From a phage, in the sequence record NC_135728.1: DNA of 64,000 nucleotides; one strand, given 5' to 3'. The notes under the pieces are model-generated. The model ran no database searches and was not told where the DNA came from. It worked only from the letters and a program-made list of their open reading frames with translations. Below are positions 30,069 through 56,881 of this stretch, piece after piece (positions within the stretch are counted from its first letter, which is position 1; each line of letters opens with the position of its first letter). Made by a program: the position numbers and the translations under genes.

Positions 30069-30374
30069 ATGGCTAAATCTAAAGTTGAACTGTTCACCTC
30101 TCTTCCTTCTGACACTGCAGAACGTGATCGCCTTCGCAAAACAATCGAAGAACTGGTGGAACTCCAGCTTCAGATTAAAGATCTGAAAGATGCCATCAAG
30201 GATATCATTCTTGTTGAGAAGCAGGATCATCTGTATTCTCCTAAATTCATCAAATCTTTGGTGGCTACAGAGTTTGATATCCGCTACGAAGCTGAAAAAC
30301 GTCGCGCTAAGATTGAAGAAGAGGTTGAGCACATGTCTGAGGCAGACATTCTGTTCAAACGCTCTGTAGAATAA
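30069..30374 (+). CDS. hypothetical coiled-coil protein
   Basis: 101 aa, aggaga RBS. Confidence 0.45.
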   Translation: MAKSKVELFTSLPSDTAERDRLRKTIEELVELQLQIKDLKDAIKDIILVEKQDHLYSPKFIKSLVATEFDIRYEAEKRRAKIEEEVEHMSEADILFKRSVE

Positions 30375-31323: not shown

Positions 31324-31425
31324 ATGGAGTGCACAATGAAAACATTGTCCGAAGTTTTGGTGGTGATCCTGATGATCATTACGTCCATAGCGGCTGTTGC
31401 CGGAATACTCACGGGTGGAACATGA
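31324..31425 (+). CDS. small hydrophobic peptide (about 33 aa)
   Basis: Below ORF-track cutoff; ATG after ggag RBS; translation MECTMKTLSEVLVVILMIITSIAAVAGILTGGT; stop overlaps next ATG. Confidence 0.3.
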   Translation: MECTMKTLSEVLVVILMIITSIAAVAGILTGGT

Positions 31426-31634
31426 TAAACACACATGCATCTGAAGAGACATCCAAAGGAGTGACTATATGTCCCTTGACTGAGCCAGTGCAAGAGGAAA
31501 ACTTCGATTCTGAAGATTCTCCATCTTTGCTCCAGGTAGATCCTGAGGCTGATGACCTAACGTGGGAAGACATCGTAGATATCTGGTTCTCTATTATGCC
31601 TGAGCACGAAGAGTTCAGGGGTGGTAGACTATGA
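31422..31634 (+). CDS. hypothetical acidic protein
   Basis: Internal ATG of ORF 31329..31634 overlapping upstream stop (ATGA); acidic C-terminus. Confidence 0.35.
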   Translation: MINTHASEETSKGVTICPLTEPVQEENFDSEDSPSLLQVDPEADDLTWEDIVDIWFSIMPEHEEFRGGRL

Positions 31635-31755
31635 AGCACCGAGCCCACACAGGTTCCTCATGCTAAAGCATGGCCTGAAGAGGCAAACGTGTATAATTCC
31701 AGCGTATTGGGACGTATAAAACCCAGTTCACACTCTCATTTCCAGAGGAGATTTC

Positions 31756-31971
31756 ATGAAGATAGAAATATTTGGTGGGGCTGACAACACTCGTGGCCTG
31801 ATTTACCTTGAATTCGATGAATCATACCTGCCAGAGGTGTTAAATATGGACTCTGTTGCTGAGGCTTTGGGAGTAAGTCCTAAAGATCTCCACTCTGGTG
31901 CTGAGATTGATGGTTGGGAGGAGACCATGAACATCGATTTCAGTGAAGTAGGGGATGAACCACTGGACTGA
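31756..31971 (+). CDS. small acidic protein (MKIEIF N-terminus)
   Basis: 71 aa, RBS gaggag; last plus-strand gene before the non-coding region. Confidence 0.45.
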   Translation: MKIEIFGGADNTRGLIYLEFDESYLPEVLNMDSVAEALGVSPKDLHSGAEIDGWEETMNIDFSEVGDEPLD

Positions 31972-32199
31972 CACACAATTAGTTGCCCGGCTAAAGTGCT
32001 GGGAGCACCCATAACACATCTTTCAACTAAATTTCCTACCACCACAATCACTTACCTCCCACACATGACTGTTTGCTTGTTTAGTGAGCAGTCATGCCTT
32101 GACATTCTTGCCTATCCTGATAAAATTAAGTTCTTCTCTTTTCTTTTACCGAGTAATTCGGGTTTTCTGTTCTCTTCGGTTTGAAGGGGTATGGAGATA

Positions 32200-32840
32200 C
32201 ACCTGAGTGAACAGGGTGAACAACCGAACCATTGGCTATGGCATTAGCATGGCGAAGCGGACGGGTGACGAAAGAGGGGCCGGAGGACACCAGTCACTGC
32301 CATATGATATATGGGTGATAACCTGAAGAGTCTGAATAAGTGTTTAAGTACCAGTCAGAGGAAAAGGTGAATGGTAGCCGAAGGGGGAGGGGGGTTACCT
32401 GCTTCTGTAAACATGCATCTGAAATACTACTTTAGATAACCTGAACCTGCCTTTCTGACAAATATTCCCTATTAAACTTGAATTATTTATAGAAAATACC
32501 ACAACACCACTTAAGTCTTTGATTTTACACACAAATCTTACAGATATTAAACCTCTCTATTTAACATACCTGTAACATATACTATACTCCACCTGTCTGA
32601 TCAATTTCCCCAACTACATCCCCATATTTTCCCTGTCTGTACTACCCCTGCCCCGCCGGGAGTCCCGTCATATCTGGCTTTCCAGCAAATATCACACCCA
32701 CAAATATCATCACCTGAAGAGGGTTTCATCCCATAATACATGCCTTACCTGAAGAGCGCTTCATATACCCCGTAAATTTTTTAATTGACCCCCTCCCCGC
32801 CGCCGGAGGGGTTGGCTTTTCCCACACAAACCTGAAGAGT
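32200..32840. repeat. dispersed ACCTGAAGAG repeats in non-coding region
   Basis: ACCTGAAGAG read at about 32322, 32712, 32750 and 32830, with ACCTGA half-sites at about 32205 and 32440. Confidence 0.5.
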
Positions 32841-33394
32841 CAGCCAGAAATATCTGAACAGCCAGTTATACCACGATTTTGTGCTTGTCCTACAGGAGTG
32901 CTTCCCTGTCAGGAGCCGGTAGCGACTGGAGTGCTGCCAGGCGGACGAAATGGGAATACTTCTCATTCTTATAACAATTCTCAAATATCGAGGCAGTGAG
33001 GCAAATTAATAGGTGAGGCCGTTCACACAGTGGCACAACATTTGCAACCTATCTTGTGGGATTGAATGAGAATACCTATCATTGTGAGAACTGTTATCAT
33101 TACGGGCAATTTAACATAATACCCATTATGCGCACCACTGGCGATACATACAGGGATTTATAACATGAGTTACTGTTTACGTATATAACAATTATATTTC
33201 TTACTATTTGTGTGGGATATAGTTAGCAGCCGATAGATTAGATATTGACCTGCAGACTTCCAACCGTCTAGACGTCTAAACGCCCACACAACAAGGTTTA
33301 TACATACATTACTGAATGTAAACAGGGCCGCAAAAATGCTACCATACAAGATTGTAAATTTTTCATGCAGCACTTGACAAAGAGGAGAAAAACT

Positions 33395-33476
33395 TGTCTG
33401 ACACTTTAGACACAATAGTGACATAATATGACACCTTTGACACACTGGACACATTAAACATAATTGACATGCCTGA
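33395..33476. repeat. array of (T/A/G)GACA(C/T) hexamers at about 10-bp spacing
   Basis: tgacac, agacac, tgacat, tgacac, tgacac, ggacac, tgacat read in series in AT-rich context. Confidence 0.5.
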
Positions 33477-33509
33477 CTGTTTACATAGCTAACTATTTAC
33501 TAAAAAATG

Positions 33510-33850
33510 ATAAGCCATGCCATTCGTTTGCATGATAAAGATTAGCAAGTTAATAATCTTTCGCTGGCTATGCCAGGTGACCTTTGGTCACCCCTTCGGG
33601 TGTTTCTATGACATAATATAAAAGCAGGGCAACTATTAGCAGATCATAGTTGCCTTGCTTGTTAACACCCTTGAGACGAAGGCTTTGCCTGAGTTTATGT
33701 CATGATTAACTAAATACAAGGCAACTATGATCTGATTAATAGTTTGCAGACAAACTATCACGGGGGTGATGGTTACTGCTTTTATATTATGTCGCGACTC
33801 CGTCGCGCCATGCCATTCGTTTGCATAGTTGCCTTATTGTTACGAATAAA
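33510..33850. repeat. inverted and direct repeat complex
   Basis: 18-bp perfect inverted repeat GACATAATATAAAAGCAG / CTGCTTTTATATTATGTC (about 33611 and 33777); direct repeat GCCATGCCATTCGTTTGCAT (about 33515 and 33808); palindromes GGTGACCTTTGGTCACC and GGCAACTAT...ATAGTTGCC. Confidence 0.55.
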
Positions 33851-34452
33851 ACAATTGCATTGTTAATGATTTCTTATCTTTCTCTTAGTCATCTAATGAT
33901 TCCAGTCAGTCTAGTAATGTACAGTAAACATTAGACGACTAAAGATTTCCCTGTTTATGATAACTCACCGTGATAATTTCAGGCTGTTTACTAAAAATGT
34001 TGACACCTAAGCTGATTTATGTTATGCAGTTTACACGAATAATTATTTTATGCAGGTATTGACTATTCCGTTATTCTATGGTTGGAATAAATACTTAGCA
34101 GACTATAGAATGGTGAGCGTACGTAAATTCTGAGATCTGGCGGCTATAGTTATACTCGATTTTTCACGTAGAACACGCTTTTGTGAGTGTGTAAGTGTAT
34201 GACTTATAAAGATTTTTAGTTGTTGACAAGATATTGAAGATGTGCATCAGGTTAAATTTTGTGCAATAGCGGCATTACGTGCAATTCTGAGAGAGAAAAC
34301 GGGTAAAAATGGCCCTGCTACCACAAGATGAAAGATTATGCAATAGTTATTTTTATATGTATATTTGTACAGTAGGGTTAATTGCTGGCTTGTTGATTAT
34401 TCCACTTGCCAGGTGGGGCCGTTTGTGGTAGGAGAAATACAGACAAAAAGAA

Positions 34453-34480
34453 AGGGGCCTTTTAAAGCCCCTGATAGTTT
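34453..34480 (-). terminator. rho-independent terminator (minus strand)
   Basis: Minus-strand hairpin AGGGGC-TTTAAAA-GGCCCCT followed by TTCTTTTTGTCT after stop of 34491..34910. Confidence 0.5.
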
Positions 34481-34490
34481 AGTTAAGAAA

Positions 34491-34910
34491 TTATAATGAT
34501 TCGTATATTTCAAAAATCCGATTTGCCAGGTCGTTACGGTAGCGGAATTTTTCCTCACGTTTGATCATCAGATCTTTAAAGCCATATTCTTTAAGCACTT
34601 CATTAACTTTATGGCGGCATACCTTCATATTATCTTGTGCGTCACCAATAAACTTGTTGCTATGGTGCATGGCTTTAATTTCTTCTTCCAGGACCAGGGC
34701 AACTATGCGGACCGGATCAAGCTGATAGGCGGTAACATCAATGCGGCATTGTAAACGGCTTTTTACGTCTGCCACCGGATATACTGCAACCTCTTCCCCG
34801 TCAACATTGACAATAATTAGTTTACCATCGATTTCGAATCCTTTCGCCGCCGGACCGTGACAAAAAGCGTTATCAAAGCTATATGCCGGATTATTAGATT
34901 TAATGTTCAT
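34491..34910 (-). CDS. hypothetical protein
   Basis: 139-aa ORF with agagg RBS and upstream promoter. Confidence 0.5.
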   Translation of the reverse strand: MNIKSNNPAYSFDNAFCHGPAAKGFEIDGKLIIVNVDGEEVAVYPVADVKSRLQCRIDVTAYQLDPVRIVALVLEEEIKAMHHSNKFIGDAQDNMKVCRHKVNEVLKEYGFKDLMIKREEKFRYRNDLANRIFEIYESL

Positions 34911-39257: not shown

Positions 39258-39303
39258 TTTACTTTATTGATGGCCCTGGAGTCAAGGCCATCTAAAAATA
39301 AAT
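39258..39303 (-). promoter_or_regulatory. repeated palindromic promoter element, copy 1
   Basis: Minus strand AGATGGCCTTGACTCCAGGGCCATCAATAAAGTAAAT: TTGACT-N18-TAAATT with GATGGCC...GGCCATC palindrome. Confidence 0.45.
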
Positions 39304-42616: not shown

Positions 42617-42690
42617 GTACTTTCTCCTTTCAAGGTGTTAATAAATTATCTTTATAGATGGCCCTGCAGCCAGGACCACCGAAAAAATAA

Positions 42691-54181: not shown

Positions 54182-54457
54182 CAATAGTTCAGGTAGGTCG
54201 TTAAGCTACCCCGCACCATTACGTGCATAGCCATACGTTTTCACGTAGGATCGGACCATCTCATATTCCTATGATAAGCAACCACAGGAATCCTCCCATT
54301 TCGACCGCACTTGCTGGTCTACTTCCTTTCGGAATGGCCTCTGAGCGTTCGCTCTTTTGAGCGCTTCGTTGCGGATTACCTTGCCATAAGGTTTAGGCTT
54401 CCCGCAGTTAAAGAGGTTATTCGACATAGATTACTCTATGAAGCCACAATGTTATTT
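54182..54457 (-). other. group I self-splicing intron in DNA polymerase gene
   Basis: 5' exon ends in U with U-G pair to guide sequence GUGG; intron ends in G; P10 pairing CAUU with exon-2 GAUG; core elements P AACUGCGGGAAG, Q AAUCCGCAAC, R CUCAGAGGCC, S GAGAUGGUCC in canonical order. Confidence 0.75.
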
Positions 54458-56881
54458 ATGGTAATAAATAATACGACGAACACCTTCATCGTACCACCCA
54501 CGCTTCACCATTTGGTGGTGCATGAGTATCCCAACTAAGTCACACAGCGATGCACCACCATTTTGTTGGTATGCATTAAGTAAAGAGTGTTTAGATCTGG
54601 TCCAGATAGCATGACCATCGAAAGAGTAGATAAACTTCTTACCTGTTGCTTCCCAGAATTTCTCCAGATCCTCTTTGCGCCCCTTAAGACCGGGGTTGGC
54701 ATCCCAAAGTGCATCTATTACCCTTTGCCCCAACTCTGGAGAGATGTCCAACATATCTGCAACTTTATCTTTTTGTGCCCCGTACATAACACCATACGTG
54801 ATAGGTTTACCGTCGTTACGGGACACCTCTCTGCCTGCTACTTTTGTATATGCCTCGGCATTGTTTTGGTGTGCGTCTCCGTTACTTACAACATCATAAT
54901 ACAGGCCGTTGTCGAACTCAAAGGCACCCCAAGCCCCGATAAGCTGCTCTAAGTTGGACCCGTCAATACCGATCTGAAAGTATCCGGGAGGAACACCCCA
55001 TAGACTACGCATCTCTTTACCCATAACCACTTTAGGAGATGGTTTAGGCATGTTTGCACAAATACTGTGTTTCTGTCTGGAAGTGTTTGTTAGCCCAGAA
55101 CTTTTAGCAGGAAGCTTATGGTCAATCTTCAAACGTGGGTGATTAAGAAGACCAGTATCAACCTTATCCTCCTTGATTGGGTCAAGGACCGATCTGCGGT
55201 TTCGCAATGATAACCACAAGACGATATCTTTAGCCATCTCTCCGTTCAATTTTTCAAGATTCGGACACAGGTGTCCAAACGTATCTTTCAGTTGCGGAGA
55301 AGTAATAAGTGCCCTGGCTTTTCTACGTATTTTCCCGAACACTTCCTTTTTAATCCTTTCGGAGTTAGGAAAGCTTCGGAACTTGTGCACGGTTGTCTGG
55401 AACTTAGCATCAGTTTTGTTCCAGAAGTTGATAATTAGGTCACAATACTCTGACTCTAAAAGCTCGTCCATATAAGCATATACTCGTGCATCAACATCTG
55501 CATCAGGTAGAGCTTTCTTCTTGCTGTCTTTAGTTACATCCTTAGTTCTCCACATTGTCGGGAGCCAGCCAGCGCTGATCAGATACCGCTTAATGTCGTC
55601 CTGATTGCTGATTTTCATAGGTATCTTGCAGTCCGGCATTCGCTTCTGCTGTAGATCACTTATTGCCTGATCCATCAGCTCTTTAGGCAAAGGGTGTGGT
55701 GTGGAAGTTCCCTTAATATAGCCTCTCAAGAAATCAGCCATCTTATCGGGGTCTTTGCAGCCCATCTCTTCACACCATTTTATCCCCATCTTGCTGACAT
55801 CCCCTGTAGAGGTAAATGCTCTCTTAGGCGGGGCTTTGAACTCTAAAGCGCTCATGTCTACAGGATAGCCAAGCTTATCTTTTAACCATTTCCAACCATT
55901 ATTAGAGATTGTCCCGTCTTGGTTAAACGGCTTTTCAGGGAACTTGGGCCGCTGAGACATTGACAGCTCTTTTAAAGGCAGTTGTGGTTCAACACGATCA
56001 GCTATTTCTTTCATCCACGCATCGCAACGGTCACGTAAAGCAATAGCTCCATCTATGTCGAAGTATACACCCTGACGGGCCTGCAGCTCCATCAGGAAGT
56101 GCTGCAGCATGCCTCGACGTAATGCGTTCTTCCAGGTGATCTTCTTGAACCCTTTCGGCTTCTCTTTGGCAGGATCGTACATAAAGTTCTGCATGTCAGA
56201 TTTGCCGTAGAATACACCTTTTGATTCCGCTACCAGCTCTTTCCAGAGCAGCTCCTGGATGATAACGTCCTCGAATACACGATCCACATACTTCCACAAC
56301 GGGAGATCGCGCCAGTCATCAATTTGAACTTTCTGGTTACCAAGGGCGTAGCCCCATGCCATAAGACCGTGAGGTCCAACAGGCTGCATTTTCTTAGTAA
56401 CCGGGTTAAATACTGAGTCTGGACAACCTTTTGGCAAAGGTCGGTCAGGCCACAAAATTCGGCTCATAGCCAATGTATCAAACAGATTAACCTGGTGGTC
56501 GTTGATAGTCCCCATACACTTAGGATCACGGAACATATCAAAATGAATACCGGACAATCTCTCCATCAGCATAAAGTCGTAGCTGTAGCAGTTGTGGCAG
56601 TTCAAAGCTGTGGGTGACCAGTCAGAATTGCCTGTAAGCCAACCTTCCAACTCTGAAAAATCTGCTATGCGAACTTCAAAATCTTTATAAAGAGTTTTCT
56701 TTGCCAGAATAAAGTTCTTAGCCTTCTCTATATCCTCTTCAGAGTAGTGTGTGCGGTCATTTAGAGGAAGGAACAGCATAAAACGGTTCTTATTCAGCTC
56801 TTTAAACAAGCCGCAGTGATAATAAAGATCTAGGTCTTCTAGTAAACCAGAGGCCTCCAGGTCGAAAGACCACATACTCAT
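54458..56881 (-). CDS. DNA polymerase (family A), exon 1
   Basis: 3'-5' exo motif FDLEASGL; polymerase motif A-like QIGIDGSNLEQ; motif B KPITYGVMYGA; ORF stops one codon after YYH, just before the expected HDE. Confidence 0.8.

Follow-up and report, generated by a model that had tools for sequence, protein, structure and literature searches.

The sequence analysed here is a phage DNA of 64,000 nucleotides (record NC_135728.1; this whole stretch is called the window, and positions refer to it unless stated otherwise). It belongs to an rV5-like phage (Vequintavirus), is 94-96% identical to many records, and is co-linear with rV5 (NC_011041), a window position being equal to the rV5 position minus 72,042. 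Our subject is a repeated 9-nucleotide word, CCTGAAGAG, in the large gap between the last genes of the + strand and the first gene of the - strand, which the rV5 paper drew as a grey box of ~2.5-2.6 kb from ORF163 (+) to ORF164 (-) and labelled 'non-coding'. A sequence-only reading of the window had also called this DNA non-coding, and rightly so: we found no credible open reading frame (ORF), the indels among relatives are non-triplet, and the rV5 authors chose the same label. Besides CCTGAAGAG the gap contains an ultraconserved block led by a promoter-like site, a direct terminal repeat (DTR) placed by homology, and two arrays of other short words (Table 1).

Table 1. Features in and beside the non-coding gap (window coordinates)
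Feature	Position	Strand	Remarks
Copy 0, CCTGAAGAG preceded by G	31674-31682	+	In the spacer between the last two + strand ORFs; invariant in 20 genomes
Ultraconserved non-coding block	32050-32400	+	Promoter and ~265 nt; ends in GGGGGAGGGGGG; holds copy 1
Near-consensus sigma70-type promoter-like site, TTGACA-16-TAAAAT with TG	32099-32126	+	Within the block; directed at the DTR
Copy 1, ACCTGAAGAG	32321-32330	+	Within the ultraconserved block
C-rich, G-poor stretch	32440-32830	+	GC skew -0.48; carries copies 2 and 3
Unit X: ACCCCTGCCCCGCCGGGAG ... TGGCTTTCC ... CACCCACAAA ... ACCTGAAGAG	32643-32729	+	Diverged duplicate of unit Y
Copy 2, ACCTGAAGAG	32712-32721	+	5' base(s) vary (TG/CA/TT); ...nnnTTCAT common to copies 2 and 3
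Copy 3, ACCTGAAGAG	32747-32756	+	35 bp after copy 2 in 18/18 genomes
Unit Y: ACCCCCTCCCCGCCGCCGGAGGGG-TTGGCTTTTCC-CACACAA-ACCTGAAGAG	32787-32842	+	Includes terminator-like hairpin 32790-32811, then a T run
Copy 4, ACCTGAAGAG	32830-32839	+	Final copy ahead of the terminal repeat, 67-118 bp off depending on the phage
Indel-prone hypervariable segment	32850-32939		Directly left of the DTR; three size classes
Direct terminal repeat (DTR)	32940-33398		Inferred by homology; physical genome ends
GACAY pentamer array	33399-33470	+	~10-bp phase; adjoins the right edge of the DTR; overlaps inward-pointing promoter-like sites
A(C/T)TNTTYAC (TGTTYAC) array, start	33473-33510	+	~16-bp phase; few copies here, up to ~10 in rV5

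A clustered 9-mer under purifying selection

The sequence-only reading had pointed to four copies of the decamer ACCTGAAGAG. All four are present as exact copies on the + strand and had been placed correctly except for the third, which starts at 32747 and not at about 32750. There is no further exact ACCTGAAGAG on either strand of the window; when up to one mismatch was allowed the window had 12 matches, whereas dinucleotide-preserving shuffles had 4.0 +/- 2.0, with no shuffle out of 100 reaching 12. The window has another fourteen 10-mers with four copies each, but those copies are scattered, and only ACCTGAAGAG has all its copies within ~520 bp. Two 'half-sites' proposed together with the decamers were not supported as copies of the motif: ACCTGA at 32201-32206 is a common hexamer (22+22 occurrences in the window), and ACCTGAA at 32439-32445 lies in a variable segment, where most relatives read ATCTGAA. 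Because the base preceding the motif differs among phages (A, T or G, as seen in 8 and then in 20 related genomes), what is conserved is the 9-mer CCTGAAGAG; one more copy of it lies farther to the left (copy 0).

In the complete rV5 genome (137,947 bp) CCTGAAGAG has eight copies on the + strand and a single one on the - strand, whereas about one copy per strand is expected from a third-order Markov model. Five of these nine copies fall within 1.19 kb, and in a comparison of all 9-mers of the genome CCTGAAGAG was the most locally clustered one (5 per 1200 bp; the runner-up had 3). The remaining four copies are in-frame Pro-Glu-Glu codons within genes. Counted on both strands of rV5, the density of the 9-mer here is ~290 times that in the remaining genome, so the local enrichment that the sequence-only reading presupposed is confirmed, and its frequency in the gap clearly exceeds that found elsewhere. 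All five clustered copies have the same orientation and lie to the left of the DTR; no CCTGAAGAG was found inside the DTR or to the right of it, even with one mismatch.

The more distant relatives W70 (Septuagintavirus) and Mt1B1_P17 (Phapecoctavirus) do not have CCTGAAGAG, and the gap of W70 (~2.5 kb) has repeat families of its own; judged from these sequences, the word is genus-specific. A scan of IMG/VR for paired motifs (CCTGAAGAG-N16-46-CCTGAAGAG) was uninformative, its matches (at least 120) being nearly all in-frame Pro-Glu-Glu repeats with spacings in multiples of 3. Readings of the motif as a Chi, DnaA-box or IHF site were considered and rejected, and a coincidence of restriction sites (CTGAAG for Eco57I, GAAGAG for EarI) and a boxA-like reading of the motif complement were dismissed on inspection. 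A literature search for the motif string found nothing relevant.

The conservation of the word was evaluated in a 20-genome alignment of the whole gap. In this alignment 44 of the 45 motif columns are invariant, as compared with 57% of the columns in the other non-coding DNA left of the terminal repeat (binomial P 5e-8) and 66% of those in the +/-40-bp flanks (P 6e-6). One or two bases directly 5' of copies 2, 3 and 4 differ among the phages, which delimits the 9-mer as a discrete unit. CCTGAAGAG is under purifying selection. The spacing of the copies, taken from left to right in the 18 full-length genomes, is ~648, 391-416, 35 and 82-150 bp, thus the distance between copies 3 and 4 varies, in contrast to the fixed distance between copies 2 and 3.

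The copies might nevertheless have no function and have been left behind by local segmental duplications within a spacer that evolves slowly. Copies 2 and 4 do lie in a diverged duplicate of ~55-85 bp (units X and Y in Table 1), which consists of a GC-rich element, TGGCTTT(T)CC, C(A)CCCACA(A)A and ACCTGAAGAG, but the spacers of this duplicate have drifted and contain indels while the decamer is still exact. The relationship of the two units was recognized by pairwise local alignment (score 44.5, vs. 19.1 +/- 3.7 and a maximum of 33 for shuffles); a MAFFT alignment of the five contexts was uninformative. Copies 2 and 3 resemble a 35-bp tandem duplication, yet the distance between them did not change in 18 genomes. 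The duplicated units differ everywhere but in the motif, the near-complete invariance of the motif columns contrasts with the variation of the adjacent bases, and copies 0 and 1 have flanks unlike those of the other copies. We consider the lack of function to be the least probable of the explanations discussed in this paper.

The terminal repeat and its flanks

The record of phage HdK5 starts and ends with the same sequence: bases 1-459 are 100% identical to the last 459 bases, and they map to window 32940-33398. The records of bov11CS3 and YN3 begin at the equivalent of 32940 and that of ECP2303 stops at the equivalent of 33398, and these three records come from laboratories other than that of HdK5. 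Korf et al. described terminal redundancies of 458 bp. In all 18 genomes that we compared, the length of the DTR is 458-460 bp and its boundaries are kept, with GCTGCCA/GGCGGACG on the left and AAAACTTGTC/TGACAY on the right (slashes mark the boundaries). The repeat of HdK5, the ends of the other records and the constant boundaries lead us to conclude that the gap holds the physical ends of the genome. The five CCTGAAGAG copies are thus the last landmarks of unique sequence before the right-hand DTR copy in virion DNA; copies 2-4 lie 67-230 bp from the cut, copies 0 and 1 at 0.6-1.3 kb. The distance from copy 4 to the boundary shifts with the indel-prone segment that lies between them. This segment and its counterpart just outside the other DTR boundary (33400-33600) are the most indel-prone parts of the region. 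The left-side indels are flanked by short direct repeats, e.g. GGAGTGCT and CTACAGG, which suggests slippage or microhomology deletions, whereas 33400-33600 looks hypervariable in the conservation profile because the copy numbers of the arrays located there differ.

It is useful to compare this arrangement with the concatemer junction of T7 and T3. In the T7 record the heptamer CCTAAAG, always on the same strand, has three copies within the 160-bp terminal repeat, eight just after the left repeat and two to three just before the right one, and the promoter phiOR is located 549 bp upstream of the right repeat. Both systems have a short exact terminal repeat (459 bp here, for the window phage by homology only), same-strand words of 7-10 nt in the unique DNA on both sides of it (here five CCTGAAGAG on the left, GACAY and TGTTYAC on the right), and a promoter aimed at the junction, which in our case is the near-consensus site at 32099-32126, at a distance of ~810 bp. 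The likeness extends to the replication module of rV5, which comprises a T7-like DNA polymerase, a primase-helicase and an SP6-like exonuclease, and fits T7-style concatemer and end biology. The T7 word ACCTAAAG resembles ACCTGAAGAG, but this may be chance. There are also clear differences. T7 has one word inside the repeat and in both flanks, in regular arrays with a period of 12-13 bp, whereas here the left and right words are different, CCTGAAGAG is missing from the repeat and its spacing is irregular. Moreover, T7 is a podovirus of 40 kb whose promoter is served by a phage polymerase, whereas the phage studied here is a 137-kb myovirus, and its promoter would be served by the host RNA polymerase.

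Binding sites of small terminases, such as R1-R3 of lambda cosB, the pacL and pacR boxes of SPP1 and the pac hexamers of P1, constitute another group for comparison. They resemble CCTGAAGAG, in part, in that several copies of a short asymmetric word lie near the cut, at a unique genome location, and that the word is specific to a phage group. They differ in that the sites are within ~100-200 bp of the cut with constrained spacing, whereas here only copies 2-4 are near, and the distance of the nearest one is variable (67-118 bp). The ends differ as well, the cosB and pac systems producing cos ends or a headful series and the phages discussed here having direct-repeat ends.

A further parallel that we examined was that of Phapecoctavirus Mt1B1_P17 (NC_052662.1), a member of a different subfamily. 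Its genome has an exact terminal repeat of 328 bp, and in the 256 bp that precede the right-hand repeat copy there are three copies and one variant of the 9-mer TCATGGCAA, which is absent from the rest of the 6.2 kb examined. The two phages are alike in the short DTR, in the same first left-end gene, and in having a same-strand 9-mer left of the right DTR copy; Mt1B1_P17 differs in the word itself, in lacking the ultraconserved block and CCTGAAGAG, and in the orientation of the genes left of the repeat, which are on the opposite strand. On the evidence of these sequences, short same-strand words beside a short terminal repeat are a recurrent feature, and the word changes by phage group. A word that differs between genera is what one would expect for terminase-specific signals.

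To the right of the DTR the GACAY array has five GACAC in 90 bp, the densest such site in the window. Copy numbers differ by phage, 3-7 for GACAY and up to ~10 for A(C/T)TNTTYAC. Inward-pointing sigma70-like promoters overlap the arrays at 33398-33427 and 33437-33464; there is no ORF downstream, and a terminator-like hairpin is found at 33589-33602. The arrays (33399-33510) may represent a small RNA of ~130 nt or a set of entry promoters. Farther to the right the gap has two perfect inverted repeats of 18 nt, one nested in the other (33610-33627/33776-33793 and 33640-33657/33717-33734), and a direct repeat of 20 nt, GCCATGCCATTCGTTTGCAT, with exact copies at 33514 and 33807; these elements belong to the right part of the gap, which is highly conserved (33700-33950). 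The first left-end gene (34491-34910, - strand), which is the homologue of ORF164, encodes a protein of 139 amino acids that belongs to PHROG 12277 and has no known function. It is absent from some Vequintavirus genomes (HdK5, nomo, SYGMH1), and its product is ~90% identical in amino acid sequence to the Phapecoctavirus counterpart, suggesting a mobile terminal gene.

The promoter-led block and the alternatives to a packaging role

Sequence conservation in the left part of the gap begins ~50 bp upstream of the -35 element of the promoter-like site and stops sharply ~265 nt downstream of the promoter. The 311-nt core of this block (32090-32400) is at least 99% identical in 99 of 118 records, while the gap overall is just 80-90% identical in most of them. 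Control segments of equal length from the genes of DNA polymerase and ribonucleotide reductase (RNR) reached this level in 7 of ~111 and 1 of ~119 Vequintavirus records, respectively. The block is far more conserved than essential genes. Its promoter-like site agrees with the consensus at 11 of 12 positions and has an upstream TG. Small ORFs in the block were rejected on inspection. When the left half of the gap was compared by BLASTN with 5,426 E. coli genomes, no match was obtained; at the DNA level the block neither derives from the host nor mimics it. Exact-word scans for a conserved 22-28-mer hit 2 IMG/VR contigs, 4 metagenome contigs and none of the GTDB genomes; since all of these matches were Vequintavirus-like, they supplied no distant homologues for covariation analysis. 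The block is, independently of CCTGAAGAG, a candidate for a new RNA gene or a DNA cis element.

These properties raise the possibility that CCTGAAGAG works at the RNA level. The promoter at 32099-32126, together with read-through from the upstream operon, would produce one or more non-coding RNAs from 32133 to ~32815 or beyond, in which CCUGAAGAG would be a repeated RNA module, e.g. a binding or processing site for an RNA-binding protein of the phage or the host, and the ultraconserved 265 nt would be a structured RNA. The transcribed strand (+) carries all five copies, which follow + strand genes and the near-consensus promoter; copy 4 lies beyond the terminator-like hairpin of unit Y. The outline of the block is like that of a discrete transcription unit, and its conservation relative to essential genes would suit a structured RNA; no Rfam 15 family matched, however, even at E<=10 (31400-34800 and 32080-32900 were searched), the best hit being at chance level. 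In one lineage a double change, C32229T and G32260A, affects two positions that are paired in the single-sequence fold, and in the hairpin CCATAT-GAT-ATATGG variation is confined to the loop. Against these hints stand unremarkable folding z-scores (-1.8 and -1.4), a local structure that differs among the five copies, and an RNAalifold count of 0 compensatory pairs, where there was almost no variation to use. A search of the literature for Vequintavirus transcriptomics yielded no expression data. A precedent is offered by the rV5-like phage PhiTE, which encodes pseudo-ToxI, a repeat-based non-coding RNA that mimics a type III antitoxin (PMC3475682). The two cases are alike in that repeats occupy a non-coding locus of an rV5-like phage, and in PhiTE the locus is expressed as RNA. 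ToxI-type repeats are, however, tandem units of equal length (36 nt; ~34-45 nt in the family), whereas in our case a distance of 35 bp applies to copies 2 and 3 alone, there is no sequence similarity to ToxI, and the units of copies 2 and 3 match at 16 of 18 nt around the motif and at little else; membership in the ToxI family was rejected. An RNA-level role appears unlikely to us, but of the rival explanations it is the one that deserves most attention.

Another alternative is that the 9-mers are operator sites, to which a phage regulator would bind in order to shut the terminal promoter or to block read-through into the DTR from the gene blocks that converge on it. The location, between convergent transcription units, would be appropriate: the rV5 authors expected bidirectional terminators in this region and did not find them. 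A candidate regulator exists 1.3 kb upstream, at 30069-30374, although its assignment is a family name only (a PHROG 'transcriptional regulator' family, PHROG-639-type). It was the sole regulator lead among the ten neighbouring ORFs; these gave no match in a Pfam search, and Pfam and PHROGs together revealed no terminase, initiator or clear DNA-binding protein among them. TATAAT or CATAAT follows 9-10 nt downstream of copies 0 and 2, but of no other copy, and the spacing to -10 and -35 elements is not constant across the five; for the same reason activator-box promoters of the T4 MotA-box type were rejected. Moreover, none of the copies overlaps the strongest promoter (32099-32126), and other promoter regions of rV5 are without the motif, because all extra copies are within genes. 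We find the operator hypothesis improbable.

It was also considered whether the gap contains a replication origin, either one with initiator-bound iterons or one in which the promoter and the G-rich block would serve initiation primed by transcription. In favour of this are the repeats on one strand, the strong promoter and the G-run GGGGGAGGGGGG, which could stabilise an R-loop, and T7 has secondary origins near its ends. The spacing is irregular and not iteron-like, however, there is no DnaA box, and no initiator-like gene is adjacent; an iteron-type origin therefore does not fit. The rV5 authors noted a GC-skew switch within the gap (rV5 104425-105475), but it coincides with the change in the direction of transcription. 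A tighter, iteron-like triplet was found elsewhere: in rV5 (NC_011041) at 65151-65300 three 9-10-mers of the GTGTCCGTAT type are located in the spacer just downstream of ORF79, annotated as 'replication initiation protein', and this site is a better origin candidate than the gap. The initiator, one of the two examples of a binding protein given by the sequence-only reading, is thus not the favoured one, and we regard an origin in the gap as very improbable.

Two observations concern other parts of the window. A group I intron (Rfam RF00028, 64.7 bits) is located at 54232-54467 on the - strand, where rV5 has split DNA polymerase ORFs (ORF224-228). An intergenic cassette of ~50 bp, AGTTTACTTTATTGATGGCCCTGG.GTCAAGGCCATCTAAAAATAAACTTA, is repeated at 39258, 42980 and 43601 and, in a weaker form, at 42657; it contains a hairpin with TTGACA on the - strand and in this resembles the promoter-stem-loop cassettes known from early regions of T4-type phages.

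A tentative role in packaging or end recognition

Our preferred interpretation, held tentatively and with somewhat less than even confidence, is that the CCTGAAGAG copies are cis-acting DNA signals for end recognition or packaging. It starts from what was observed, i.e. the motif, its enrichment, polarity and conservation, its position by the genome ends, and the similar layouts seen elsewhere among phages; the steps which we infer are that it acts at the DNA level, which protein would bind it, and that its role is in packaging. On this interpretation CCTGAAGAG would mark the right end of the unique genome sequence in rV5-like phages, and the order of elements in the concatemer would be promoter, ultraconserved block, five CCTGAAGAG, 459-bp DTR, GACAY array, TGTTYAC array and early genes. 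A phage protein, most plausibly the small terminase subunit or some other packaging or end-processing factor, would bind the same-strand 9-mers, mainly at copy 4 and at the pair with the fixed 35-bp distance (copies 2 and 3). Once bound, it would recruit a nuclease, which would cut at the two conserved DTR boundaries. In its action the arrangement would correspond to pacB/SRR at the concatemer junction of T7 or to the R-sites of lambda cosB. The sequence-only reading had taken the decamers for recognition sites of a sequence-specific DNA-binding protein or nuclease, and its other example, terminase, agrees with this on circumstantial grounds, namely the cluster beside the DTR and the analogues in T7 and Phapecoctavirus.

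Several points weigh against a packaging signal. The cluster spans 1.16 kb with irregular spacing, its two outer copies are farther from the cut than typical terminase sites, and because the distance between copy 4 and the cut varies (67-118 bp), the motif is no ruler. No candidate for the binding protein was found among the neighbouring ORFs with Pfam and PHROGs, and the annotation of rV5 names no small terminase. All copies are on the strand that is transcribed from the upstream promoter or operon, thus a role at the RNA level would fit equally well. To our knowledge, the role of the SRL and SRR repeats of T7 has never been established. It must also be noted that the DTR of the window phage itself was placed by homology and not observed. 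Headful, partly permuted packaging was inferred for one Vequintavirus from PhageTerm (PMC13211470), and the more distant rV5-like phages PVP-SE1 and PhiTE were described as circularly permuted.

The ultraconserved block may have to be included in the scheme. It is conceivable, but in our judgement doubtful, that the promoter-led block and the CCTGAAGAG copies serve, in this large myovirus, as a module for packaging initiation coupled to transcription by the host RNA polymerase, or else that the block is a new, ultraconserved terminal non-coding RNA. In the first version the transcript, or an RNA polymerase stalled at or near the motif, could bring terminase to the concatemer junction, which by analogy could make the module a host-polymerase counterpart of the phiOR/CJ mechanism of T7. 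In the second version a protein of the phage or of the host could be bound by the repeated CCUGAAGAG modules.

The terminal redundancy of Vequintavirus and the 'non-coding' box have already been published; in the literature that we searched there was no description of the motif cluster, its conservation and its placement by the genome ends, of the two right-side arrays, or of the ultraconserved block. The 'non-coding' box of rV5-type phages, unexplained since 2013, now has a concrete anatomy around the genome ends. These phages are in wide use in typing, biocontrol and therapy collections. If the packaging interpretation is true, the 9-mers would be a minimal cis element for transducing or engineered rV5-type genomes and the partner of a small terminase that has so far not been annotated, and it would become possible to compare them with T7 and its analogous repeats.

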